Shown here piece by piece: positions 28,763 through 42,530 of a stretch of DNA of 64,000 bases. The stretch is from positions 1,376,001 through 1,440,000 of the forward strand of contig CBDCWI010000002.1 of NCBI GenBank assembly GCA_965223325.1, written 5' to 3'. The stretch comes from Candidatus Multivoradales bacterium (GTDB lineage Bacteria; Acidobacteriota; Thermoanaerobaculia; Multivoradales; Multivoraceae). Each line of letters starts with the position of its first letter. The stretch's first letter is position 1. The position numbers and the translations under genes are program-made. The notes beneath the pieces are model-generated. The model made no database searches. It saw only the letters and a list, made by a program, of their open reading frames with translations, and was not told where the DNA came from.

Positions 28763-30922
28763 ATGCTGAAACATCGGGAGTCCACGCTCCAGCCGACTCT
28801 GGCGGCGCTCTTGTTCGCCGGTCTCTTCGAAGGCCTTGCCATCGCCCGCTACGACGTCTTGATGGCCGACTTCACCGGCACAGCGCCGCTGTGGGCGACT
28901 GCCAGCGTCTTCCTCGTCATGCTCACGCATCTCATCGGCTGGGGCAGCATCGCCTGGATCTTGCGACGCTCTGGGGTGCGCGATCGTTGGGTGCTTTGGG
29001 CGGCGACGGCCGCCGTGGCTGCAGCGGTGGCACTGTACGCCCGCCTGGCAATTGACGACCGAACGGTGCTTTCACCCCTGGTGGCGGTCGGGCCCCTTGC
29101 GCTCTACCTGCTCTTTGCCATCACGCGACTCTGGCGCCTGCACTCAGCCAACCGCTCGCCTCCGACGCACATCGAGCCAAGTCGCCGAGAAGCCGTCACC
29201 AATGCCATTCTGGTGGCGCTCGCCTGGCTGCCCGTCGCCGTGTGGTCGCTGTTCGGCCGCGTACCGGACGTTCCCTTTCCGCTCGGAACCCAGGTTTCGT
29301 TCGCGGCCAGCAACGCGTTGATCGCCATGATGATCGTCGCCGCCGTGTTCTGGTGGGCGCGTGCGGCAGTCCTGGGAGCAGGCCTCCTGGTGCTCGGCTC
29401 GTTGCTCGCGATGGTGGCACCGCGGACCCACGCCGACCCAGGACGTCCCAACGTGCTGTTCGTACTTGTCGACACGCTCAGACAGGACTACACGGCCCCC
29501 TTCGGCGACGCCGTACGGGGCCAGGCCATCAAGGATCTCGCTGAGCGCGGCGTGACCTTCTCGCGCACCCTCACCGCAATACCCAAGACGCCCGCATCGG
29601 TGGCCTCTTTCTTCACCGCTCGCTACCCGCCCGGCCACGGCGTGCGGACGCTCTTCGACGCGCTGCCCGAAGTCAACAACACGATCGCCGAGGAGTTCCA
29701 AAGCGCCGGCTACCGCACGGAAGCGTTCGTCGCCAACGCCTGGATCAGTCGCGGGCGCAGTTTCGGCCAGGGCTTCGATCGCTTCCACGGCTGGCAAGAG
29801 TTGAATCGCCCCTGGGGGCCGCTGCGCTACGTCAGTTGGTGGATGGCCTTCGACCGGCTCTCCATGCAACGTATCGAACCGTTCTCCGGCCAGACCTACG
29901 CGCACAGCCTGACCGATCGCGTGCTGGCCGCGCTCGACGACGGCGACCGCGACCCCTTCTTCCACTATGTCCACTACTTCGAACCGCATTGGCCGTACCT
30001 TCCGCCGCCCGAACTGGCCCGGCGCTACGGTGCCGACCCGGAGCGCCCTTCGAAGGTCAACAACGTCGGATCCGGCGACCTGGCGCGCGCTGTCATGTTG
30101 TTTGACAACCCGCTCCCCGAGGACGAGAACGAGCACGCGCGAAAGCTCTATCGCGGCGAAGTCGACAACACCCTGGCCGCGGTCGGGCGGCTGCTGGAGG
30201 GCCTCGAGGAGCGCGGGCTCACCGACGACACCATCGTGGTGTTCACCGCCGACCATGGTCACTCGCTCGGCCAACATCGCTACTGGTTCCACCACGGCGC
30301 CTTCCTCTACGACGACTCGGCCCTGATCCCTCTGGTGCTGTCGTGGCCGGGCTCGATTCCCGAGGGTCGAAATGTCGACTTCCAGGTGCGTTCGGTCGAC
30401 GTCATGCCCACGCTCGTCGAACTCGCACTCGACAGGGCGCCGCGACAACCGGTGACCGGTGAGAGTCTGGCTCCCCTCTGGAAGGGCACAGAGAGCGAGC
30501 ATCGTGAAGCCTTCCTCGAATCCGACGTCAAGATGATGGTTACCAACACGCGACGCGCAGTACCGGGCACGGTGGGCAAACTGCGAGCGGTTTCGGACGG
30601 ACGGTGGAAGCTGGTGATGACTCCCCTCGCACCGGGCTTTTTCTTTGAACTGTTCGACGTCCAGGAAGACTCTGCCGAGCTCACCAACCTGGCCCAGGTG
30701 CCGGAACATCGAGCCACTTTCGAGCGCCTGTCAGAGGCGCTCCAGCGCCTGATCCCAGAAGCCGAGCGTGACGCACTCGACCTCCTCCAGCGCCAGACCA
30801 ACCGCCCGGCCGACCCATCGAGTTCCGCCCCGGGCCCAGGCGGTGAAGGTCAGGAAGATCCGATCGACGAGTCCGAGCGCCGACTGCTCGAGAGCCTGGG
30901 GTACGTCGAGGGCGGCGCATGA
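28763..30922 (+). CDS. Multi-TM membrane protein with C-terminal sulfatase-like domain (Thr nucleophile)
   Basis: About 7 N-terminal TMs; PNVLFVLVDTLRQD, KTPASVASFFT, HYFEPH, TADHG, HHG, C-terminal LESLGYV. Confidence 0.88.
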   Translation: MLKHRESTLQPTLAALLFAGLFEGLAIARYDVLMADFTGTAPLWATASVFLVMLTHLIGWGSIAWILRRSGVRDRWVLWAATAAVAAAVALYARLAIDDRTVLSPLVAVGPLALYLLFAITRLWRLHSANRSPPTHIEPSRREAVTNAILVALAWLPVAVWSLFGRVPDVPFPLGTQVSFAASNALIAMMIVAAVFWWARAAVLGAGLLVLGSLLAMVAPRTHADPGRPNVLFVLVDTLRQDYTAPFGDAVRGQAIKDLAERGVTFSRTLTAIPKTPASVASFFTARYPPGHGVRTLFDALPEVNNTIAEEFQSAGYRTEAFVANAWISRGRSFGQGFDRFHGWQELNRPWGPLRYVSWWMAFDRLSMQRIEPFSGQTYAHSLTDRVLAALDDGDRDPFFHYVHYFEPHWPYLPPPELARRYGADPERPSKVNNVGSGDLARAVMLFDNPLPEDENEHARKLYRGEVDNTLAAVGRLLEGLEERGLTDDTIVVFTADHGHSLGQHRYWFHHGAFLYDDSALIPLVLSWPGSIPEGRNVDFQVRSVDVMPTLVELALDRAPRQPVTGESLAPLWKGTESEHREAFLESDVKMMVTNTRRAVPGTVGKLRAVSDGRWKLVMTPLAPGFFFELFDVQEDSAELTNLAQVPEHRATFERLSEALQRLIPEAERDALDLLQRQTNRPADPSSSAPGPGGEGQEDPIDESERRLLESLGYVEGGA

Positions 30923-32985
30923 CGGCCGGAACTCCTCCGCGCTACGCCGCGCCGCTGGCAGTGCTCCTCGCCATGGCCTTTTTTCTGACCGTCTTTCTGC
31001 TCGGCATCCAGCAGGAGAAGGGCGCCATCCTCGCACCCATCATTGCCGGGGCCGCAGGTTTCGTGCCGATTCTGACTCAGTTGTCGTTCGTCGTTCTGGT
31101 CGAGGTTTCACTCGTCTTGATCGCCCATGCCCTGCAGCTCGGAGACGTAGGTGTCGGAAGCGGCTCGCCAGGAGACCCTGCCAGGCGTTGGGGCATGAGA
31201 GGCTTTCTCTGGCTCGGACTCGTTGCCATCGTCCATGCCATCTTGTACTGCTCTGCAGTCGCTGAGCATTCCTTCGTCTTGCATACGGCAACCCGCCTCG
31301 ACCCGCACGTTCTCGCCTACGCGGTCGAGAACTTCGCGATGCTCCAGAGCGTTCTACGCTCGGGCGCCGATGCGCACCTCACTCTGCGCGCCTCGCTCGC
31401 CGGCCTTTGTTTCGTCGCCGGTCTCCTTGCGGGCCTTTGGTTCTCGCAACGACTCGGCGCGCACCAATCACTCGTCTCTCGCCTCGAGGTTCTCTGCCGG
31501 CCGCCGGTGATCGTCGCCTTGCTGGTTTTGGGTGCCCTCTTCCCGCTCGGGGTGTCATGGACCCTGGGTGGCGGTGGCATCACCACGATCGACCCGCTGG
31601 GCTTCTGGTACGCCAGCCTGGCGCGCCAGCCGCCGCCACCGCCGGCGGCAGTCGGTCTCATCCTCCCCGACGACTTCTACGCCGCCCCGCAGCTTCTCCC
31701 CCCAGCCATCGACTCGGACCCGGCGTCCCGGCCCAACGTTCTTCTGGTGGTGCTCGAGTCGACCCGCGCCGTCTCCCTGCCGCCCTGGAATCATGCCGAG
31801 GAAGCTCCGCTGGCGCTACCCTTCTTCGAGCGCATGGCGCGCGAGGGAACGGTGGCCCTCGAGACCTATGCCGGCGTCACCCACACCACCAAGGCGCTGC
31901 CCTCGATCCTCTGCTCGGTGGCGCCACGGCTGGTGATCGACACCACCGAGACGTTGGACAACGGTCTGCCGGTTCCGTGCTTGCCACACCTCTTCACCGG
32001 CCTCGGCTACCGCACGGCGTTTCTGCAAACCGCCAAGAGCACCTTCGAGAATCGCCCGGGGCTGGTGCGCAATCTCGGTTTCGAAAACGCCGCCTTTCGC
32101 GAAACGGTCGCGCGCGAGGGCTTCGACGAAGTCGGCTATCTGGGAGTCGAGGACCGCGCCCTGATCGAACCCGCGCTCGCCTGGACGCGAGCGGCTGGCG
32201 ACAACCCCTGGTTCTTGACCCTCTTGACCCTGACGCCGCACCACCCCTACGAGACTCCCGAGATGGCGGCCGAAGGCGTTGGTTTCGATCCCACCCTACC
32301 CTCTTACCATCGCACCCTCGAGTATCAGGATCAGTTCCTCGCCGATCTGTTCGCGGACCTCGAAGCGGGTGGTGCTCTCCTGAACACCCTGGTTGTTCTG
32401 ATCGGCGACCACGGAGAGGCCTTCGGTGAGCACGCGCGCCGCGAGCACGACGCCGTGCCCTGGCCGGAGGCGGCACACGTACCGCTCTACCTCTGGGGTT
32501 CGCCGCTCGCCGGTCGTCCACAGCGCGTTTCAGGTCTACGCAGTGTGCACGACGTCATGCCTACGGTGCTCGACCTGTTCGACATCGAGTGGCAGGGGAC
32601 GCTCCGCGGTCAGACGGTCTTCGGGCCCGCCCACGAGCGGGTTTTTACCTGGTGTTGGTACAGCCGCTTCTGCGGCGCGATGCGCACCGGACCCCTGTCG
32701 GTCGTCTACCACTTTGATCGCCTGCCCACCGAGCTCTACGATCGCAAGAGTGACCCGCTAGAGCTCACCAACGTCGCGCCTGGCGTCGACGCCGCATCGA
32801 TTCGAGCTCTCGAGAGTCGCCTCCTGGCACACTGGTACTCGGTCAACGGCTTCTGGCAACACCAGGCGCCACCGAGCAGCCCGGACGAGCTGTGGTGGGC
32901 CAGTAGCGCCCCCACGCCGGCAGACGGCGACCCCGCTCGCCGCTCCAACGACGCCTCTCTCCCGTCAGCGCCCGACCCCTTCTGA
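30919..32985 (+). CDS. LTA synthase/phosphoglycerol-transferase-like membrane protein
   Basis: N-terminal TMs; PNVLLVVLES, THTTKA, TPHHPY, IGDHGE; ATGA overlap with the previous gene. Confidence 0.85.
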   Translation: MTAGTPPRYAAPLAVLLAMAFFLTVFLLGIQQEKGAILAPIIAGAAGFVPILTQLSFVVLVEVSLVLIAHALQLGDVGVGSGSPGDPARRWGMRGFLWLGLVAIVHAILYCSAVAEHSFVLHTATRLDPHVLAYAVENFAMLQSVLRSGADAHLTLRASLAGLCFVAGLLAGLWFSQRLGAHQSLVSRLEVLCRPPVIVALLVLGALFPLGVSWTLGGGGITTIDPLGFWYASLARQPPPPPAAVGLILPDDFYAAPQLLPPAIDSDPASRPNVLLVVLESTRAVSLPPWNHAEEAPLALPFFERMAREGTVALETYAGVTHTTKALPSILCSVAPRLVIDTTETLDNGLPVPCLPHLFTGLGYRTAFLQTAKSTFENRPGLVRNLGFENAAFRETVAREGFDEVGYLGVEDRALIEPALAWTRAAGDNPWFLTLLTLTPHHPYETPEMAAEGVGFDPTLPSYHRTLEYQDQFLADLFADLEAGGALLNTLVVLIGDHGEAFGEHARREHDAVPWPEAAHVPLYLWGSPLAGRPQRVSGLRSVHDVMPTVLDLFDIEWQGTLRGQTVFGPAHERVFTWCWYSRFCGAMRTGPLSVVYHFDRLPTELYDRKSDPLELTNVAPGVDAASIRALESRLLAHWYSVNGFWQHQAPPSSPDELWWASSAPTPADGDPARRSNDASLPSAPDPF

Positions 32986-34509
32986 CCAGCGCGCCACGTC
33001 GCCGCTCTCTAGACCATCGGTGAAGATCAGAGCCGACGGGCTCACGGTCCACACGAAGCCGGCTTCGGTGCTGCCGGCGCTCTCGGTTACGGTCACTGCG
33101 ACGGTGTGAACACCAACCGCGCCGTTGGTCGGTCGACCGCTGATCACGCCATTCGCTGGGTCGATCGAAAGCCCGGCAGGTAGGCCAGTCGCGCTGTAGG
33201 AGAGAGGCTCGCCCTCGGGATCGGTGGCAACCACCTGGACCAGAACGTAGTCGCCGGCGGCGTCGCCCTGTGCCCCGGGCGAAACAATCGAAGCCGGCAG
33301 GTTGCCGGCCGCCTCGGCAGTCCAGTCGCGAGGACGAAGATCAAACGAGTTCCAGTGCGAGTACATCCAGACGTCGTCTTCATCTCGCGGAACATGATGA
33401 AAGGAAAGACCGACCCACACCACCGGGTCCTGCCCGACCAGACTCTCGCCGTTTCTGAAGTCCGCGAGGTCGGAACCGCAGATGGTGCCCCGCGCCGGGG
33501 TGACGAGGTTGTGCGACGCGAAGCGCTCACAGGCGCGCCACCGGGTGAACCAGAGATCGTGCTCGGTGAAGGGCTCGTAGGAAGGGCCAACGCTTCGGTG
33601 CCCGAAGTGCGTCGGCACGATCTCGTAGGACGGCGAGTGACCATCGGCGTTCGTGGTGCCGAGGTCGGTAACTCGCCAGGTGCGGAGAGCATCGGGTTCG
33701 ATCGAGCGCGCGATCTCGGTATCGAAGCGCTCTACTGAAATCGTCCGGGTGCGGTTGTTGGCATCGGGTGTCGCGTCGATCTCTTCGATCACATCGTCCG
33801 ACCCGTCATCGCCGAGGTCGAAATCGAGGCGCCAGAAAAAATTGTGAACGTGGGAGATCGCAATGCGTACGAAGTCGTCGTCGATCGACCAACCGTGGAT
33901 CTCGTCGGCAGGTTCGTCCGTGACCCGCTGCAGGCGCCCGGTGGCACCCATGCCCACTTCGATCGAACCGTCGTCGCGAAACGTCCAACGAGGAATGTAG
34001 TTGTAGGCACCGATGCCGCTGATCGAGAAGATCACCAATTGCTCACGCGCCGCCCCACCACCGTCGAAGAGCATGCGCGGCTCGCGCGCTTCTTGGTAGT
34101 GACAAACGACGTCCTTGTCGGTTGACAGCGAGTCGGTGAACGGAATCAACGTACCCGGGCAGTTGTCTTGATCGATCGACACCAGCCGTTTGTCGCCGAT
34201 TCCGAAGTCTGAAAGGTCGTGAAAGCGGGCGCCGTTGTCGTCGTAGGGGACATGGATCTGCGCCAGCCCGGCCTGGGTGAACACCCGCCGGCGCTCACCG
34301 GGCGCACTCGAAAAGTACACCTCCTCGAGGAGGACACCTTCGCGGGGATCGTGCGACACGCAGAGGTCCCAGCCCGTTCCGTTGTCGAAGGTGTAGTCGA
34401 GGCGCCAGTTCCCGGTGCACGGTTGCCCACTCGCCCCCGTTCCGACCAGAGACAACAGAACGGCCAGCAGAGGAGCCCGAAGGGAACGCCCGGACTTCGT
34501 AGCGGCCAC
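32965..34509 (-). CDS. Secreted copper amine oxidase-like catalytic subunit + putative Ig (He_PIG) domain + IFxDGLESG tail
   Basis: Signal peptide; REGVLL, QIHVPY, FHDLSDFG (catalytic Asp position), IGAYNY (TPQ Tyr position), DGSIE..ATG, HVHNFFWRLDFD, DPVVW, HHVPRDED; ATGLPAGLSID. Confidence 0.88.
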   Translation of the reverse strand: MAATKSGRSLRAPLLAVLLSLVGTGASGQPCTGNWRLDYTFDNGTGWDLCVSHDPREGVLLEEVYFSSAPGERRRVFTQAGLAQIHVPYDDNGARFHDLSDFGIGDKRLVSIDQDNCPGTLIPFTDSLSTDKDVVCHYQEAREPRMLFDGGGAAREQLVIFSISGIGAYNYIPRWTFRDDGSIEVGMGATGRLQRVTDEPADEIHGWSIDDDFVRIAISHVHNFFWRLDFDLGDDGSDDVIEEIDATPDANNRTRTISVERFDTEIARSIEPDALRTWRVTDLGTTNADGHSPSYEIVPTHFGHRSVGPSYEPFTEHDLWFTRWRACERFASHNLVTPARGTICGSDLADFRNGESLVGQDPVVWVGLSFHHVPRDEDDVWMYSHWNSFDLRPRDWTAEAAGNLPASIVSPGAQGDAAGDYVLVQVVATDPEGEPLSYSATGLPAGLSIDPANGVISGRPTNGAVGVHTVAVTVTESAGSTEAGFVWTVSPSALIFTDGLESGDVARWSEGVGR

Positions 34510-34511
34510 CC

Positions 34512-35750
34512 TCAGGGCTCTCCCTGTCTGCGGGTCGGGTCGAATGGGTTCTCGTACGTCCAGTCGCGTGGCAGAAGGGTGTAGCCGTACCAGTCGATCG
34601 GCTCACGATAGGCGCTCTCGTCTCGAGGCAGATGATGCCAACTCAACTTGTACCAGAGCACCGGATCGCCGTTCTCGAGATCGCCCGCGTCGATGTAGTC
34701 CGGCAACGACGCCCCGCAGCCACCGACAGTAGAATTGCCGAACGCCAGGCGCTCGCAACTGGTCTCGACGGTGGCCCAGAACGCCGCCTCGGTCCAGGGC
34801 TCGGCAGCCAGCCCGACGAAACGATGGCCTACCGCCAGCGGCTCGAGATGGTAGGAGCGAGCATGGCCCTCGCTGTTGTCCTGGCCGCCGTCGAGGAGCC
34901 GCCATGAGCGCTTCCGCTCGAGGTCGACGGTGGCAAATGCCTCGCTCGTCCAGGCATCCAGCTGCCGTGTGTAGAGCTCACGGTCGAGATTGGGCTCGAG
35001 CTCCAGCTCTTCGACGGTGTCGTCTGCGCCCGAGGTTCCGAGGTCGAGATCGATGCGCCACCAGGACGAAACCGTTGAAGCAACCCCAATGGTTCCGACG
35101 GCATCGATAGGCCAGCCGGCCGTGCTGTCGGATCCGGTTTCGGTGAGCAGGCCACCGCTACCGAGAGCCGGCTCGATCACGCCGTCGTCGTGCAGACGAA
35201 AGCGCACCACCCAGGTTCGACCGGCAAGTTGCGAGGCAGACCAGAGCTCGAGCCACTCGCCCTGACGCTCGGAGCCGTAGTACTGGAGCATCGGGCCGCG
35301 CCACTGCACGCGGTGGCAGGCGTTCGCTTGTGCTCCACCCGGAGCGTTCTGTGCCATGAGCGAACCGCCTGCGCAGTCCTCGGCTCGTAGGGTCAAGGCG
35401 CCACTGGCCAGGCCAGCGGCCGACAAGAGCCCCTCGCGCGAACGATCGTCGTGGAACACCACTTCGATCTGCGCCAGTCCCAAGCGATCGACGACGCGAT
35501 GCTCTGAGCCCCCCGGAAGGGTCAAGCGGGCGTCAACCAACTGCAGGCCCTCTTGATCCGCCAACTCGAGGCAACCGCGCCAGCGCGAACCTGCCTCGAA
35601 GGTCACGTCGAACTGCTGTGCTGGTGCACAGTTGAGCTCCTGGGCGGCGACCGCCTGCCCCGGCAGCAGAGGGCCCAACGACAACACGCCGACCAGGGCG
35701 CAGAATGGCCAGCTAGCAAAAGAACGACGTTCCAGCGACACAGCTCTCAC
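34512..35750 (-). CDS. Secreted copper amine oxidase-like paralog lacking catalytic residues (pseudoenzyme)
   Basis: Collinear with the downstream gene (QEGLQL, LAQIEV, DGVIEP, WRIDLDLG, DPVLW, HHLPRDE) but LAGRTW replaces IGAYNY and STV replaces HVH. Confidence 0.85.
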   Translation of the reverse strand: MRAVSLERRSFASWPFCALVGVLSLGPLLPGQAVAAQELNCAPAQQFDVTFEAGSRWRGCLELADQEGLQLVDARLTLPGGSEHRVVDRLGLAQIEVVFHDDRSREGLLSAAGLASGALTLRAEDCAGGSLMAQNAPGGAQANACHRVQWRGPMLQYYGSERQGEWLELWSASQLAGRTWVVRFRLHDDGVIEPALGSGGLLTETGSDSTAGWPIDAVGTIGVASTVSSWWRIDLDLGTSGADDTVEELELEPNLDRELYTRQLDAWTSEAFATVDLERKRSWRLLDGGQDNSEGHARSYHLEPLAVGHRFVGLAAEPWTEAAFWATVETSCERLAFGNSTVGGCGASLPDYIDAGDLENGDPVLWYKLSWHHLPRDESAYREPIDWYGYTLLPRDWTYENPFDPTRRQGEP

Positions 35751-36616
35751 GGTCGCGCACCGGCTGGGTGCACGTGGTCGGCGTTCGCCGGGGAAGCAGC
35801 GCGAACTCGCCGCTCGAGCTCGAGGACCTCGCCAGTCGAGAGATTGACCACCGGCAAGACGCCCAGCGCCAGGCGTTCGGCGACCCCGGCGGTCGCCTCG
35901 CGGGCGTAGATCACCAGTTGCGCGCAGCGCTCGAGACCACAGCTCTTGGCTCCGCTGCTGCGCGTGGGCATCGCATCGGCGCGGAAGATGAACGCCTTGA
36001 CATTGAGCAGCGAGGCGTTCTGGAGAGCCTCGCCGGTGCCGAGCCGGTAGCGCTCACGGATGACGCGGCGGGTTGGACCGTCGGCGAGCGCCAGGTCGAG
36101 AGCCCGACGCGACTCCCTCTCGGTGAGCGGCAGCTGTGCACCACGAGTCTCGAAGTGATCGTAGAGCGCTGGGTCTCGACCCTCGGTCAGGCTGACCGTC
36201 AGCCTGTGGGTGATGTCGCGTGGGTACTCATAGACCCACACCACGGCACGACGCGGGCGCGCGCTGCGGTTCCTGGCCTTTCTCCCTGCCGGCCAACGCT
36301 CGGTTTCAACCAGCAGCAACTCGTAGCCCGGCAGGGCAGCCAGGAACTCCTCGAGGTCTGCGGGCGGGTTGGCCCGTACGGCCGTGGGAAGAAGCTCTTC
36401 GAGAGCCGACCGACTCGCTGCGCGGCGCTCCTCCGGGCTCAACGGGTCGAGCGCCCCCTTGGCACCGACCGATCGAGCACTCGTTGATCGGGCGTTCTCC
36501 TCTCGACCTTCGGGAGTGAGTGCCTGGGTCTCGCCTCGGGCGGCCAGGAGCGCGCCTCCGATCGCAAGAGCCAGCGCAAAGCGCCACCAGGGGCACAGGA
36601 TTCGAGGTCCCATCAT
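35747..36616 (-). CDS. Secreted protein resembling copper amine oxidase N2/N3 domains
   Basis: Signal peptide; LDPLSPEE, PRRAVVWVY, QLPLTERE, CGLERC, VVNLSTGEV; GTGA overlap with the next gene. Confidence 0.75.
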   Translation of the reverse strand: MMGPRILCPWWRFALALAIGGALLAARGETQALTPEGREENARSTSARSVGAKGALDPLSPEERRAASRSALEELLPTAVRANPPADLEEFLAALPGYELLLVETERWPAGRKARNRSARPRRAVVWVYEYPRDITHRLTVSLTEGRDPALYDHFETRGAQLPLTERESRRALDLALADGPTRRVIRERYRLGTGEALQNASLLNVKAFIFRADAMPTRSSGAKSCGLERCAQLVIYAREATAGVAERLALGVLPVVNLSTGEVLELERRVRAASPANADHVHPAGARP

Positions 36617-36732
36617 CTCTCTATTGTATTCGCCAATGGCTTTCTGTGCCGGAACGAAAGGCACCCCGCAGCCCCCTCGAAAGGGGTCCACGGGGCGCAT
36701 TCGAGGCCTTCAACGGAAGGGGCCGAAGAGCC

Positions 36733-38868
36733 CTAGACCGGCAGGCGCTGCATCCGGCGCCAGGCGAGCCCCCCTAGCACCATCACCAGGAGGATGAGTC
36801 CCCACACATCGAGAGTGGGAATCGGGTAGACACCGATCGGCCCGTCACCCTCGACCACTTCGGCGGTGTCATCGTCAGTGACGTCGGGAAGGCCCGGCAG
36901 GTCATCACCGTCCTGGTTCGACGGGTTGCCGACGGTGGTGGCGTCGTTGATGATGTTGCCCTGGATCGTCGACTCCCAGTAGTAGACGATCGACTCGCCG
37001 GGCGCGAGGGGTTCGCCGCCCGAGAGCAGCACCATGTCGGTCTGGTTCACGCCGTAGGTGTTGTCGACCAGAGTCACATCGTCGAGGTAGGTGGCTCCGG
37101 TATTGGTGATGACGAAGCAGAAGGTGACCGCATCACCGAGCTCGCCCTCGGCCAGTTCCGAACCCTCGCAGCTGGCACCATCGTCATAGCCGAGGTAGAC
37201 CGTCTTCTCGAGGTTGATGTCGGGCGTCGGAGTGACTGGATCGTCGCTCTCGGCCACCTCGGCGGTATCCGTGTCGGTGGGGTTGGGCAAACCGGGGATG
37301 TCGGACCCATCGGGGTTCGACGGGTCGCCCTCGGTGTTGGCAGTGTTGAGGATGTTGCCCTGAATCGTCGACGGCCAGGAGAGCAAGCGCGATTCACCCG
37401 GCGCGAGAATGCCCGGGACGTTGAACGTCTGACCGTAGGTTTCGTCTTCGACGACCACGTCACGCAGGTGGGTGGTGCCGGTGTTGGTGACGACGAAGCA
37501 GAAGGTGACCGGATCGCCGAGCTCGCCTTCGACGAACTCGACCGAACCGGCACAACCGGCATTGCCGTTCGTGCCGAGGTAGACCGTCTTCTCGAGCGAG
37601 ATGGCAGCGCTCACCACACGGACCGAGGCCGGGTCGGTGGCCTCCGGGTCATCGAGGCCCGGAAGATCGTTGCCGTCGCCACCCGTGGGGTTGCCCGTCG
37701 TCGAGGCGGTGTTGTCGAAGTCGACCGTTGCACCACCGGCAGGCGTGTACGAATAGGTCGCCGAAGCCCCGGGTGCCAGTGGCAGGCTTCCCGAAACCGG
37801 CGTCAGGTCGCTGATGTCGAGCCCCAGGGGATTGTCGTCGAGCGCCAGCGAGCTCAGGAAGACACCGCCAGTGTTGGTGACTTCGAAGCACCATGTGATC
37901 GGCGTGCCCGGTGCGACGGTGAGAATCTCGACGCCGGGGCATGCGTTGCCGTCGGTGCCGGCGACGATGGTCTTCTGCAGGTCGATCCCGGTAACGGCAC
38001 ATTCCAGCGTTTCGTAATCGAAACCCAGGGCGCTCAGATCGGCCAGCTGGACGCTCGTGCCGGTCGCTTTGTCGACGGAGAAGAAGCTGTTGTTGAGCCC
38101 CGCCGTGCCTTCGTCGCCAGTCGAGGCGAACATATTCCCGGAGCCGTCGATGGTCAGGCCTTCGACGTCCTTGACGCGCTCGGCGCCGGTCAGGAACGGA
38201 CCGATCGGCGTGGCGACACCGGTTACCCGATCGATCGTCACCAGCACGTCGTTGCGATCAACCCCTCCGCCAGCCTGGTTGGCCACACCGTAGAGGATGC
38301 CGGTCGTCGGATCGACGGCAATGTCATCGACGTCCATGACGCCTGAGACCGCACTCAGGTCGATGGGAATGCAGTCGCCGACGGGCTCGCCGCTGTTCGG
38401 GTTGACCGAGAAGAGGAAGTCCTCGCCGTTTTCATCGCGGCGATTGGCCAACAGCTGACCGGTAGTCGGGTCGAAGTCGAGGCCGTCGTTGTCGGAGGCC
38501 TGCTGACCGCCAGGGCAGGCACCCGCCGCACCAACCGACGTGAACTCGGCGGTGTTGGGGTCGACGCGGCCGAAGTTCTGGGCATCGTAGACCCACAGAG
38601 TCCCGGTTGCGAGGTCGAGCGCCGAAGACTCGATGTTGAAGGTCGCGGAGGTGGTACCGGCGATCACGATGCCACCCAGGTTGACCGGGCTCGAGCCGTC
38701 AGGCTCGACCTGTATCAGACCGTCGGGGCCGCCCTTGTTGTCGGCCACGAGGTAGCAGACGCCATCGGAAGTTTGAGCGCCAGCAACTCCAGCACCAAGA
38801 GTGAGAAGCAGTGCGGCCAGACCGGCCCAGCGGGCGGGCGGGATGGCAAGTATTCTGAGTCGGACCAT
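36733..38868 (-). CDS. IPTL-CTERM surface protein: beta-propeller-like N-domain + three Cys-containing Ig-like (DUF11/DUF7507-like) repeats
   Basis: Signal peptide; D(P)xTG blade motifs; 3x I.L(Q/E)KT...C...T(W/F)CF.(V/I)TNTG...LAPG; C-terminal PIPTLDVWGLILLVMVLGGLAWRRMQR. Confidence 0.9.
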   Translation of the reverse strand: MVRLRILAIPPARWAGLAALLLTLGAGVAGAQTSDGVCYLVADNKGGPDGLIQVEPDGSSPVNLGGIVIAGTTSATFNIESSALDLATGTLWVYDAQNFGRVDPNTAEFTSVGAAGACPGGQQASDNDGLDFDPTTGQLLANRRDENGEDFLFSVNPNSGEPVGDCIPIDLSAVSGVMDVDDIAVDPTTGILYGVANQAGGGVDRNDVLVTIDRVTGVATPIGPFLTGAERVKDVEGLTIDGSGNMFASTGDEGTAGLNNSFFSVDKATGTSVQLADLSALGFDYETLECAVTGIDLQKTIVAGTDGNACPGVEILTVAPGTPITWCFEVTNTGGVFLSSLALDDNPLGLDISDLTPVSGSLPLAPGASATYSYTPAGGATVDFDNTASTTGNPTGGDGNDLPGLDDPEATDPASVRVVSAAISLEKTVYLGTNGNAGCAGSVEFVEGELGDPVTFCFVVTNTGTTHLRDVVVEDETYGQTFNVPGILAPGESRLLSWPSTIQGNILNTANTEGDPSNPDGSDIPGLPNPTDTDTAEVAESDDPVTPTPDINLEKTVYLGYDDGASCEGSELAEGELGDAVTFCFVITNTGATYLDDVTLVDNTYGVNQTDMVLLSGGEPLAPGESIVYYWESTIQGNIINDATTVGNPSNQDGDDLPGLPDVTDDDTAEVVEGDGPIGVYPIPTLDVWGLILLVMVLGGLAWRRMQRLPV

Positions 38869-39855: not shown

Positions 39856-40839
39856 GTGCCGGCAAAGCCTGAGCAGACGGTCAGCGACGAGGCGGTCATC
39901 GCGCCGCGCTCGCCGTGGTTGGAGTTCAGCCAGGAGGAGTGGGGACGCCTGCGGGCCGACACCCCGCTGACCCTGACCGAGGCCGACCTCGACCAGCTGC
40001 GCGGTATCAACGAGAGTGTGTCGATGGATGAGGTGGCGACCGTCTACCTCCCGCTGTCTCGCCTGCTCAATCTCTACGTCGCCGCTACTCAGGGTCTGTT
40101 CGATGCCACCGCGACCTTCCTGGGCAAGAACGAGGGCAAGGTGCCCTACGTCATCGCGGTTGCCGGTTCGGTCGCGGTTGGCAAGAGCACAACCGCCCGC
40201 ATCCTGCAGGCCCTCTTGAGTCGCTGGCCCAACACACCGGCTGTTTCGCTGGTGACCACAGACGGCTTTCTATGGCCCAACGCCAAGCTCGAGGCCGACG
40301 GCCTGATGCACCGCAAAGGGTTCCCCGAGAGCTTCGACGTGCGCCGCCTCGTCGACTTCGTTGCCAGCGTCAAGAGCGGCAACCGAGGGGTCACCTACCC
40401 GCTCTACTCCCACCTGAGCTACGACATCATCCCCGACAGGTTCGGCGTCGTCGACCGCCCCGACATCCTCATCCTCGAAGGATTGAACGTCCTTCAGCCC
40501 CCACCCACGACCGGTCCGGGGCATCCACCCCGCCGCCATCTCTCCGATCTCTTCGACTTTTCGATCTACGTCCACGCTGAGACCGCGGTCGTCGAAGAGT
40601 GGTACATCCAGCGCTTCTTGACCTTCCGCGAGACCGCCTTCCAATCCCCCGACGCCTACTTCCACCGCTACGCCCAGCTCAATCAGGAAGAGGCCATCGC
40701 AACCGCCAAGGGCATCTGGAAGAGCATCAACGAGATCAACCTCGAACAGAACATCATCGGAACCCGCGAGCGCGCCACCTTGATCCTCGAAAAGGCTGCC
40801 GACCACACGGTCACCCAGGTCAAGCTACGCCGGCTATGA
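39856..40839 (+). CDS. coaA: Type I pantothenate kinase
   Basis: [53 protein letters not shown]. Confidence 0.96.
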
Positions 40840-42530
40840 CCGTCCGGTTCGCAGCTTGTATCACCATCGGCGCCTGCCTCTTTCTTTCTGTGCCTGGTGC
40901 CGGCGAGGAGTACCACGTCGCCCGCCAGGCTGGACAGGCTTCCGATGCAAATGACGGCCTGGCGCCGGTCTACCTGGGCGGCAACCACGGACCATGGGAG
41001 AGCCTCCACCACGCCAGCCAGGTCGCGACAGCCGGCGACACGGTCTGGATTCACGCCGGCGACTACCGCGGTGAAGTCACCGGCTGGGGTGGTGACGGCG
41101 TCATTCACGTCGACAACTCCGGGTCCCCGGGCGCTCCGATCCGCTTTCGCGCCGCCCCCGGCCCGCCGCCGCTCGTCCAACGCATGCTCATCCACGACCG
41201 AGAGTGGATCGAGATCGAGGGCCTGGCCTTCGAGAGCACCGAGTACGACCTCCCGGCCACCTGGCTCGACATGCCAATGATTACCGTAGACGACCCCACG
41301 GTGGTCATCGATCCCCGCGAAGACTGGTCAACCCGCGCCGCCAGGGTGCGCCAGAAGTACGCCACCTACACCGCCATGCAGGACTTCTTTCTGACCCAGT
41401 ACACCGTCGGAGTCGACGTGAAGAACTCACACCACGTCACCCTCCAGGGCAACTCGTTTCGCCTCTACACCTTTGGCGTCCAGATCCGCGGCGTCTCGAG
41501 CAACCTTCTGATTCAAGACAACAACTTCGATCACAACCACGACGGCATCTTCAGTTGGCTGCCCGAGCCCTCAATCAGCGACTCGATCATCCGCCGGAAC
41601 GTCATCCGCCACAGCTTCAACTCAGGTATCCAGATTCGCCAGCAGGCGACCTCGGTGGTCATTGCCTCGAACGACATTCGCTGGAGCGGCACCTCCCACA
41701 TCTCGCTTCTCGCCGACTCCGTCGACTGTTCGATCCGCGGCAACCGAGCCGTTTTCGGGGGGTACTACTCGGAGACCATGGAGTTCCCTGGAAGCTCGGC
41801 GATCAACGTCCACACCTCCGGCCCTGGAAACATCGTCGAGGGCAACCTCGCCGCCTACCAGAACGACCCCACCCTCGTCGACGGCAACGGCTACATCGCC
41901 GACTTGATGCGCCCGGACGGCACAGTGCTGTTTGTCAACAATGTCGCCTACCGCAACGTCGGCTCCGGCATCCGCACCGTCGAAACCCCAGGCTGCGTGA
42001 TCGTCCACAACACGCTGGTGGAAAACGGCTACGGCGCCGAGACCGCCTACGGTGGCGCCGGGGTCTACCTGGCGCGTTCACACGACACCCAAACGACGAT
42101 CGCCAACAACATCTTCAAGGGTCACACCTCTGCCTCGATCAAGAGTTGGTACACCGCCGACCAGCAGGCCGAGATCAACTTCAACCTCTTCGACGAGTCG
42201 CCCGGCATTCCGTTGCTCTGGGACGGAGGCGAGGGCGACAGGGCCTACTTCGACCTCCAATCCCTGCACGCCTCGACCGCTTGGGAAACGGAGGGAAGAG
42301 TAGCGAGCGCCCAGCTTGCAGACCATGCCGCCCTGGACTTCCATCTCACCTCCGCCAGCGCCGCGATAGACGGCGGACGCGCGGCACCCGAAGCCACCTC
42401 GGACTACAGCGGAATCCCGCGCCCGCGCGGCGATGCCCCTGACATGGGTGCCTTCGAGTACTGCCCAGACGGCTGCCAGCTGATCTTCCAGGACGGCTTC
42501 GAAGGCGGCGACATCGACGCCTGGCGCTAG
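40836..42530 (+). CDS. Secreted right-handed beta-helix (pectate lyase-like) protein with IFxDGFEGG tail
   Basis: ATGA overlap with coaA; signal peptide; ASDANDG...[15 protein letters not shown], repeated I..N ladders, [19 protein letters not shown]; ends [16 protein letters not shown]. Confidence 0.88.

Follow-up and report, generated by a model that had tools for sequence, protein, structure and literature searches.

The copper amine oxidases (CAOs) serve as a textbook example of quinone enzymes that process themselves. All the members that have been characterised structurally are described as single-chain homodimers (PMC3382800), and the enzymes are stated to be functional only as dimers (PMC4497604). 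The DNA studied here, a window of 64,000 nucleotides from Candidatus Multivoradales bacterium (assembly GCA_965223325.1, contig CBDCWI010000002.1, positions 1,376,001 to 1,440,000; positions below are counted from the first nucleotide of the window), contains three adjacent genes, A, B and C, in which the parts of such an enzyme appear to be distributed over separate polypeptides. Our reading, to which we give a probability of roughly 0.55, is that A, B and C are the subunits of one secreted split CAO, B replacing the second catalytic subunit and A supplying the domains D2 and D3. An initial annotation of the sequence had described the genes as a split CAO with an enzyme and pseudoenzyme pair and interpreted them as a heteromeric surface oxidase with one active site per B:C dimer. 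The observation was confirmed and the interpretation was supported, the outcome being in its favour at each check that was run.

The locus shares with the canonical CAOs (ECAO of E. coli, AGAO of Arthrobacter and HPAO-1 of Hansenula; EC 1.4.3.21), whose cofactor is topaquinone (TPQ), the D4 fold, the base Asp, the precursor Tyr, the three His and the Tyr hydrogen-bonded to TPQ, and in the structural models also the D2 plus D3 fold in A and an extensive two-fold-like D4:D4 interface. It differs from them in that D2/D3 and D4 are separate secreted polypeptides and the second D4 is a distinct dead paralog, and further in the motif G-A-Y-N-Y in place of T-x-x-N-Y-D/E, in three conserved Cys pairs, and in variable adhesion-type C-terminal domains. 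The same genome also encodes a canonical single-chain CAO of its own, of 677 amino acids (aa) with the motifs NYDY, HDH and GDYG (G000:C2:2576918-2578951, corresponding to L001:703-2736).

Other described systems resemble the locus in single respects. AGAO has been engineered into a dimer in which a wild-type subunit is paired with a cofactor-less Y382F subunit, the active one being reported as normal (PMC4497604); it is, however, a laboratory construct of one gene with one point mutation, whereas B is encoded by a separate gene, is only 32% identical to C and is conserved across phyla. The VAP-1 delta-3 splice variant, from a paper with 13 uses of 'heterodimer' (PMC3548902), is a shorter second form of a protein of the primary amine oxidase family, but it is mammalian, truncated and produced by alternative splicing, unlike the full-length paralog found here. 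In trypanosomes, AdoMetDC works in a complex with prozyme, a catalytically dead paralog born by duplication (PMC5201418); the fold and the chemistry are unrelated, and the paralog is an activator there, a role that B may or may not share. The plant clade I CuAOs have lost the cofactor motif T/S-x-x-N-Y-D and yet persist as family members (PMC12058724), but these are single-chain eukaryotic proteins from a survey of plants and animals only, and neither a partner subunit nor a split architecture is described for them. A literature search by title and abstract start, with most subscription journals outside its range, found no paper on split or heteromeric bacterial CAOs.

The three proteins

Genes A, B and C are three open reading frames (ORFs) arranged head to tail on the minus strand. 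Their coupling, claimed in the initial annotation, is borne out by the ORFs and the sequence: A and B meet in GTGA, the GTG of B overlapping the TGA of A, and 2 bp separate the TGA of B from the GTG of C. Each of the proteins begins with two or three Lys or Arg residues followed by its most hydrophobic 11-residue stretch, which is consistent with a putative Sec signal peptide on all three, as also proposed there.

Gene C (32965-34509, minus strand; 514 aa, GTG start) encodes the putative secreted catalytic subunit, which consists of D4, a He_PIG domain and a C-terminal tag. The protein matched the Pfam family PF01179 (Cu_amine_oxid) with 140.6 bits (cut-off 27) and E. coli CAO (ECAO) with an E-value of 6.5e-17 over residues 43-396. 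The alignments place the D4 catalytic domain at residues 28-400 (33310-34428), straight after the signal peptide, and the D2-D3-D4 order of a single-chain enzyme is absent. In the alignment to ECAO the base Asp is D101 of SDFG (codon 34207-34209) and the precursor Tyr of TPQ is Y169 of GAYNY (codon 34003-34005). The Cu ligands H220 (codon 33850-33852) and H222 (codon 33844-33846) of HVH are aligned to HQH of ECAO, and the third, H372 of HHVPR (codon 33394-33396), to the His of THV, all on the minus strand. For the HxH pair the printed HMMER alignment is off by two residues, and the register used is our own reading of the ungapped pairing of HVHNFFWRLD with HQHIYNFRLD. The PF01179 match and the ECAO alignment thus agree with the Asp, Tyr, HVH and HHVPR His that had been picked out from the sequence in a catalytic domain standing alone. 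Y89 is the counterpart of the Tyr hydrogen-bonded to O4 of TPQ, a conserved CAO residue described together with the catalytic base Asp in PMC3382800. Among 69 C-type rows D101 is present in 66, and Y89 and H372 in all 69, H220 and H222 being criteria by which the C-type group was defined.

These residues suggest that C would be the only catalytic subunit, its D4 binding Cu via H220, H222 and H372. Y169 would be converted to the quinone cofactor, D101 would act as the base, and C would oxidise a primary amine to the aldehyde with release of ammonia and H2O2. The catalytic part is followed, as the initial annotation held, by an Ig domain, found as the He_PIG (putative Ig) family PF05345 at residues 410-490 (33040-33282, minus strand; E 1.1e-15, 58.3 bits). 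The C family comprises more than 442 clusters at 90% identity, and the C-terminal modules of other C-type proteins include PKD, cadherin, MAM, discoidin, P-domain or dockerin.

Gene B (34512-35750, minus strand; 412 aa, GTG start) encodes a secreted D4 paralog that is catalytically dead by its residues, i.e. a pseudo-oxidase. B has the D4 fold (PF01179, 49 bits against the cut-off of 27) and is 32% identical to C over 385 residues (E 2e-62). At the catalytic positions of C, however, the Asp is replaced by Ala, the Tyr by Arg and the HxH pair by Thr and Ser (Ser and Val in the alignment to the profile hidden Markov model, HMM). The HH pair is present and all six Cys of C are matched; two of the three conserved Cys pairs have no counterpart in the genome's own canonical CAO. 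The alignments hence agree with the description of B as a full-length paralog of C with matching Cys residues and without the Asp, the Tyr and HxH.

Gene A (35747-36616, minus strand) encodes a stand-alone secreted protein of 289 aa from the ATG at 36616, or of 317 aa from the ATG at 36700, the start used by the gene call of the protein collection. The protein matched no Pfam family at E-values up to 0.1 and no NCBIfam model. Its AlphaFold2 model, built from a 76-row alignment, shows two alpha/beta domains with a predicted local distance difference test score (pLDDT) of 83 and a predicted template modelling score (pTM) of 0.73. In a Foldseek search with this model the best 50 matches listed were all CAOs, the best with an E-value of 3.5e-7. 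VIA-align superposed residues 45-273 of A on ECAO 87-283 with Z 10.3 and an rmsd (root mean square deviation) of 4.0 over 188 aligned residues, and the model on HPAO 19-212 (Z 9.9, rmsd 3.2) and on AGAO 9-195 (Z 9.2, rmsd 3.3), and in all three enzymes the matched range is D2 plus D3. The sequence profiles agree more weakly. Six of the seven matches that the A profile gave in the PDB up to E 10 were yeast CAOs (best E 0.11), matched in their N-terminal part where a range was given; the A-family profile found the N-terminus of the genome's own canonical CAO in a six-frame search (E 1.9e-4); and the A relative P0162 reached E 0.01 with AGAO-like_N2, which is below the cut-off. Because its fold superposes on D2 plus D3 of CAOs, A is, as predicted by the model, a detached D2/D3 module, and the resemblance to the N2/N3 domains that had been noticed in a few short motifs holds at Z values of 9-10.3. 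As a separate D2 plus D3 polypeptide, A would dock non-covalently on a D4 subunit.

The A family has 190 representatives (clusters at 50% identity) in an exhaustive HMMER search at E-values up to 0.001, and nearly all of them are stand-alone proteins of about 240 aa. Its best-conserved part is the motif C-G-x-x-R-C-A-Q at residues 226-233 of A (about 35918-35941, minus strand), in which C226, R230 and C231 are invariant in 76 rows; this part may be a loop stapled by a disulfide, or it may bind a metal. When A alone was searched against a sample of 400 other genomes of the phylum, nothing matched. This means that only close relatives are absent there, since the profile search later found distant A-like genes in the class: stand-alone ORFs of 235-283 aa in 24 of 301 genomes, a tally that includes G000 and the unpublished G542, which bears none of the claims made here. 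Earlier k-mer homolog searches with A and with B, in which 8000 candidates were scored, had given one relative each and were superseded by the profile searches.

Conservation of the gene set and the predicted complex

With an alignment of 12 A rows, 185,579 species genomes were scanned and 71 loci detected, which together with the window make 72. Every ORF of 100 aa or more in the 72 loci was searched with the HMMs of the A family and of the D4 domain of the C family, and the active-site columns were then read. The order A, B-type, C-type was found in 48 of the 72 loci, in three phyla, with Thiotrichales, Methylococcales and Caldilineaceae among the hosts. The record titles of the loci name Thiothrix, Thiolinea, Cocleimonas, Leucothrix, Methylococcales, Caldilineaceae and other Chloroflexota, and further Microthrixaceae, Iamiaceae, Rubrobacter and Nocardioides; by the same titles, Promineifilaceae and Herpetosiphonaceae are also among the main sources. 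Culturable carriers in the titles are Thiothrix lacustris, T. caldifontis, T. fructosivorans, Leucothrix pacifica and Cocleimonas flava.

Forty-five of the 48 loci, the window included, have the plain order. Two from Cocleimonas (L015 and L019) are A-B-C-C, the first C-type gene being very long (1453-1494 aa) and another C-type gene following it, and one from an uncultured Thiothrix (L025) is B-C-A-B-C, with two B-C pairs around a single A gene. The remaining loci comprise 16 with A and C and no B, one with A and C in overlapping frames (L030), one with C only (L075), five with A only, and one, from Thiolinea disciformis, with A and B only, its C-type gene being on another contig. Among the five A-only loci, four are cut by the contig end within 468 nt and the fifth (L060) has a D4 gene split by a frame change. 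Straight after A and B, Thiolinea disciformis has an ORF of 141 aa, then the di-haem gene and a patatin gene.

In the metagenomic representative P0160 (640 aa), an A-like domain and a B-type D4 are naturally fused. Its D4 has Gln at the Tyr position and Tyr and Asn at the HxH pair, i.e. residues of the B type, and the fusion thus ties A physically to B. In the predicted fold of P0160 only D4 is confident, the A part (residues 21-254) having a pLDDT under 50; the mixed alignment was probably poor for the A part. Also kin genomes of the same family carry related arrangements. In three of them (G468, G508 and G620; loci L107, L108 and L111) the A-like gene encodes 263-283 aa, and behind it stand two PF01179 genes in tandem, of 533-583 and 1151-1371 aa, with Calx-beta or PKD domains; in four others (G630, G548, G512 and G266) the A-like gene is followed by one D4 gene. 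The alignments in these genomes reach 50-76 bits only and their single residues are not reliable, but the combination of a D2/D3 gene with two D4 genes recurs in a more divergent subfamily.

The maximum likelihood tree (quick IQ-TREE analysis, LG+G4) included 119 D4 domains and the genome's canonical CAO as outgroup in 363 columns, four fragments with fewer than 300 filled columns being omitted. All 50 B-type rows, the window's B among them, fall on one side of a branch with a Shimodaira–Hasegawa-like approximate likelihood ratio (SH-aLRT) support of 99 and come from three phyla. The B type was defined by the missing HxH pair or Tyr, and these three columns are among the 363 of the tree. Both B and C of the window are on long branches, and the terminal branch of B, 1.13, is the longest among the D4 rows. 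In the B clade no row has a His at either HxH position, and the precursor Tyr is retained in four of 50. The former active site has a pattern of its own: of the 50 rows, 35 carry Arg in place of the Tyr, 41 have Phe at the first and 39 Asp at the second HxH position, and 35 have a His one residue past them. The window's B shares only the Arg, with Ser, Val and Ser in place of Phe-x-Asp-His.

The ratio of non-synonymous to synonymous substitution rates (dN/dS; Nei-Gojobori) had a median of 0.083 and a range of 0.024-0.22 in 52 B-type pairs 60-97% identical, and a median of 0.095 in 76 C-type pairs; in 40 matched locus pairs it was 0.086 for B and 0.064 for C. By these results B is an ancient, maintained D4 paralog. 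Conserved A-B-C synteny and purifying selection on B, two of the checks that the initial annotation named for its model, were thus both found. Two further sequencing runs likewise contain the stretch intact, the first without any difference; the second, in low-depth contigs, has seven differences, of which one is synonymous in C, and four synonymous and two non-synonymous in B.

The B:C complex was modelled from residues 28-400 of C and 36-412 of B, each with its own family alignment. The interaction prediction score from aligned errors (ipSAE) had a median of 0.91 in three runs (0.90-0.92), and the best of three controls scored 0.00. The models have 276-286 contacts, with a partner pLDDT of at least 87 (87-89 for B), and the runs agree in at least 92% of the contacts. 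In the calibration, 116 of 157 solved complexes and two of 215 mismatched pairs scored this high, counts that apply only roughly here since own alignments were used. The interface has a pseudo-two-fold arrangement, in which residues 90-92 of C meet 257-261 of B, 254-256 of C meet 100-101 of B, and 375-376 of C meet 395-396 of B. The B hairpin at 257-261 lies beside the invariant Y89 of C in the model. In the split enzyme, then, the dead B would stand in for the second subunit that a classical CAO homodimer has. The beta-hairpin arms of B would form the missing back wall of the active site of C, giving one active site per B:C pair.

Possible alternatives: homodimer, decay or other chemistry

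Several findings weigh against this heteromeric enzyme. Since 16 of the 72 loci have A and a C-type gene without B, the C-type protein can work without B, presumably as a C:C dimer, and in Thiolinea disciformis DSM 14473 (L017 and L077) the sole C-type gene lies apart from A-B. A single A gene accompanies two D4 genes, and P0160 is a single representative and possibly a frameshift artefact. Because solved CAO homodimers exist, the passing score of the B:C model shows likeness to CAO homodimers and is not proof of binding. Of the modelling proposed by the initial annotation, B:C versus C:C with and without A, the B:C part scored well against the controls, but the pass may reflect the solved homodimers, and as a prediction it does not separate B:C from C:C or B:B. 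Neither did the conservation of the hairpin arms show a clear asymmetry between B and C: the arm of B is slightly more conserved, and C is as variable in the A-C loci as in the A-B-C loci. Finally, the consensus at the precursor Tyr is given as T-x-x-N-Y-D/E (PMC3382800), and in the G-I-G-A-Y-N-Y of C the Tyr is present, but the Asn at -1 is replaced by Ala and the Asp/Glu at +1 by Asn, a departure on which the initial annotation was silent. The variant is the rule for the entire C family (consensus HVGAYNYIP), the 69 C-type rows having A, E, S, W or K and never Asn at -1, and N, Y, H, V, F, C, R, K or E at +1.

The loci without B, the unlinked C of Thiolinea disciformis and the lack of partner discrimination in the model would all suit an enzyme that is a C:C homodimer decorated with A, as it must be in the A-C loci, with B not the dimer partner but a B:B substrate- or matrix-binding protein, a maturation or copper-loading factor, or a regulator. 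B also keeps its fold, its six Cys and a conserved pattern at the former active site that is possibly a new binding site; the window's B, however, lacks Phe-x-Asp-His, so that this site is not conserved across the clade. We regard the homodimer as somewhat unlikely, because B stands between A and C in 48 loci with tight or overlapping junctions and retains the residues of the predicted D4:D4 interface in a confident model, and because the A-B fusion P0160 treats B as a normal D4 with its own D2/D3. That B is a recent, strain-specific decaying duplicate of C would agree with the loss of four of the five catalytic residues and with its longest terminal branch among the D4 rows, but this is practically ruled out by the single clade of 50 B-type genes in three phyla and by the low dN/dS throughout its range; moreover, the B ORF is of full length with its six Cys and is intact in both of the other sequencing runs. 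Quite unlikely, too, is that the C-type proteins are not TPQ amine oxidases at all, their G-A-Y-x-Y site having a different cofactor or substrate, in Thiotrichales perhaps with a MauG/MbnH-like di-haem enzyme that is encoded downstream. The canonical consensus occurs in no C-type row and the closest solved structure of the C family matches only at E 6.5e-17, but the base Asp (66 of 69), Y89 and the third His (69 of 69 each) fit the full CAO mechanism, and the entry title of PDB 7wir, a holo AGAO N381A mutant, suggests that the Asn may not be essential for the cofactor. A di-haem CCP_MauG gene is present downstream of C in 24 of 32 A-B-C loci and in none of 13 A-C loci, counting loci with at least 2500 nt of room; a peroxidase that disposes of the H2O2 formed would account for it equally well, its link with B may be a lineage effect of Thiotrichales, and the only CCP_MauG gene of the window's genome is about 50 kb away.

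The di-haem gene is co-oriented and lies 238-677 nt downstream of the C-type gene (L010, L014, L020, L035 and 20 more loci). In NCBIfam it comes closest to MauG and MbnH, with scores well under the cut-offs of both, and its product could remove H2O2 or modify a subunit. A small YtkA-like ORF lies between C and the di-haem gene in 12 loci, and a patatin gene follows in 11.

Export, surroundings and possible role

The last residues of C form a tag, ALIFTDGLESGDVARWSEGVGR (residues 493-514; 32968-33033, minus strand), that belongs to a genome-wide motif: hydrophobic-F-x-DGFE-x-GD-xx-W followed by at most 19 residues. In the genome's six-frame ORFs the motif was counted 27 times, in 26 cases within 1-19 residues of the stop codon. 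A second tagged ORF is present in the window (40581-42527, plus strand), and 24 further places are found in the genome. Among the 17 long tagged ORFs are a GH9 cellulase, M6, M10 and M12 peptidases, beta-helix proteins, CotH and DUF11 repeat proteins, and from these domains the tagged ORFs appear to be a secretome. The tag was absent from all other A, B and C relatives that were examined; it thus belongs to the host lineage and was gained by C. The tail has no membrane-spanning stretch (best 19-residue hydropathy in the last 80 residues 0.90). C is without a match among the NCBIfam sorting models, while the gene upstream does match IPTL-CTERM. The tag thus looks like a lineage-specific secretion or sorting signal that would mark C, and not A or B, for the pathway reading it. 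The sorting-like tail of the initial annotation stood as a recurrent C-terminal tag but not as a known sorting signal or hydrophobic anchor, and the complex may or may not be tethered through it. The Ig-like domain of C together with the tag would direct the complex to an extracellular site.

The gene upstream of A (36733-38868, minus strand, as A) encodes 711 aa with three DUF7507 repeats and an IPTL-CTERM sorting signal, and its end is 33-117 nt from the start of A. Two sulfatase-family genes (28763-30922 and 30919-32985, plus strand), joined by an ATGA overlap and with long hydrophobic N-terminal regions, are convergent with gene C and share 21 bases with its 3' end. Neither the DUF7507/IPTL-CTERM gene nor the sulfatase-family genes were conserved partners in the other loci with A homologs. 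In a promoter and terminator scan every match lay inside genes.

Many of Thiothrix, Thiolinea, Leucothrix, Cocleimonas, Caldilineaceae, Promineifilaceae, Herpetosiphonaceae and Microthrixaceae are filamentous or sheathed. Because of such hosts and of the adhesion-type C-terminal domains on the catalytic subunits, the enzymes may have a bacterial lysyl-oxidase-like role in which amines on a sheath or matrix polymer are oxidised for cross-linking, and in Thiotrichales the di-haem peroxidase may consume the H2O2 from such an oxidase. It is conceivable, though unlikely, that the split CAOs are obligate hetero-oligomers making up a class of extracellular oxidases not described before, with one active site per pair, in which a dead D4 and a detached D2/D3 set specificity or docking, and which perhaps cross-link sheath or matrix in the manner of lysyl oxidase.

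If A, B and C are indeed the subunits of one enzyme, the picture of CAOs as single-chain homodimers changes: the N-terminal domains can be separate, and one catalytic subunit can be replaced by a conserved dead paralog. The family would then offer a natural test of the roles of the second subunit and of D2/D3, for which the field has so far had only engineered heterodimers (PMC4497604), and a dated example of a homomer becoming a heteromer with a pseudoenzyme. It would also supply a function for the A family, with its 190 representatives at 50% identity and no Pfam or NCBIfam model.

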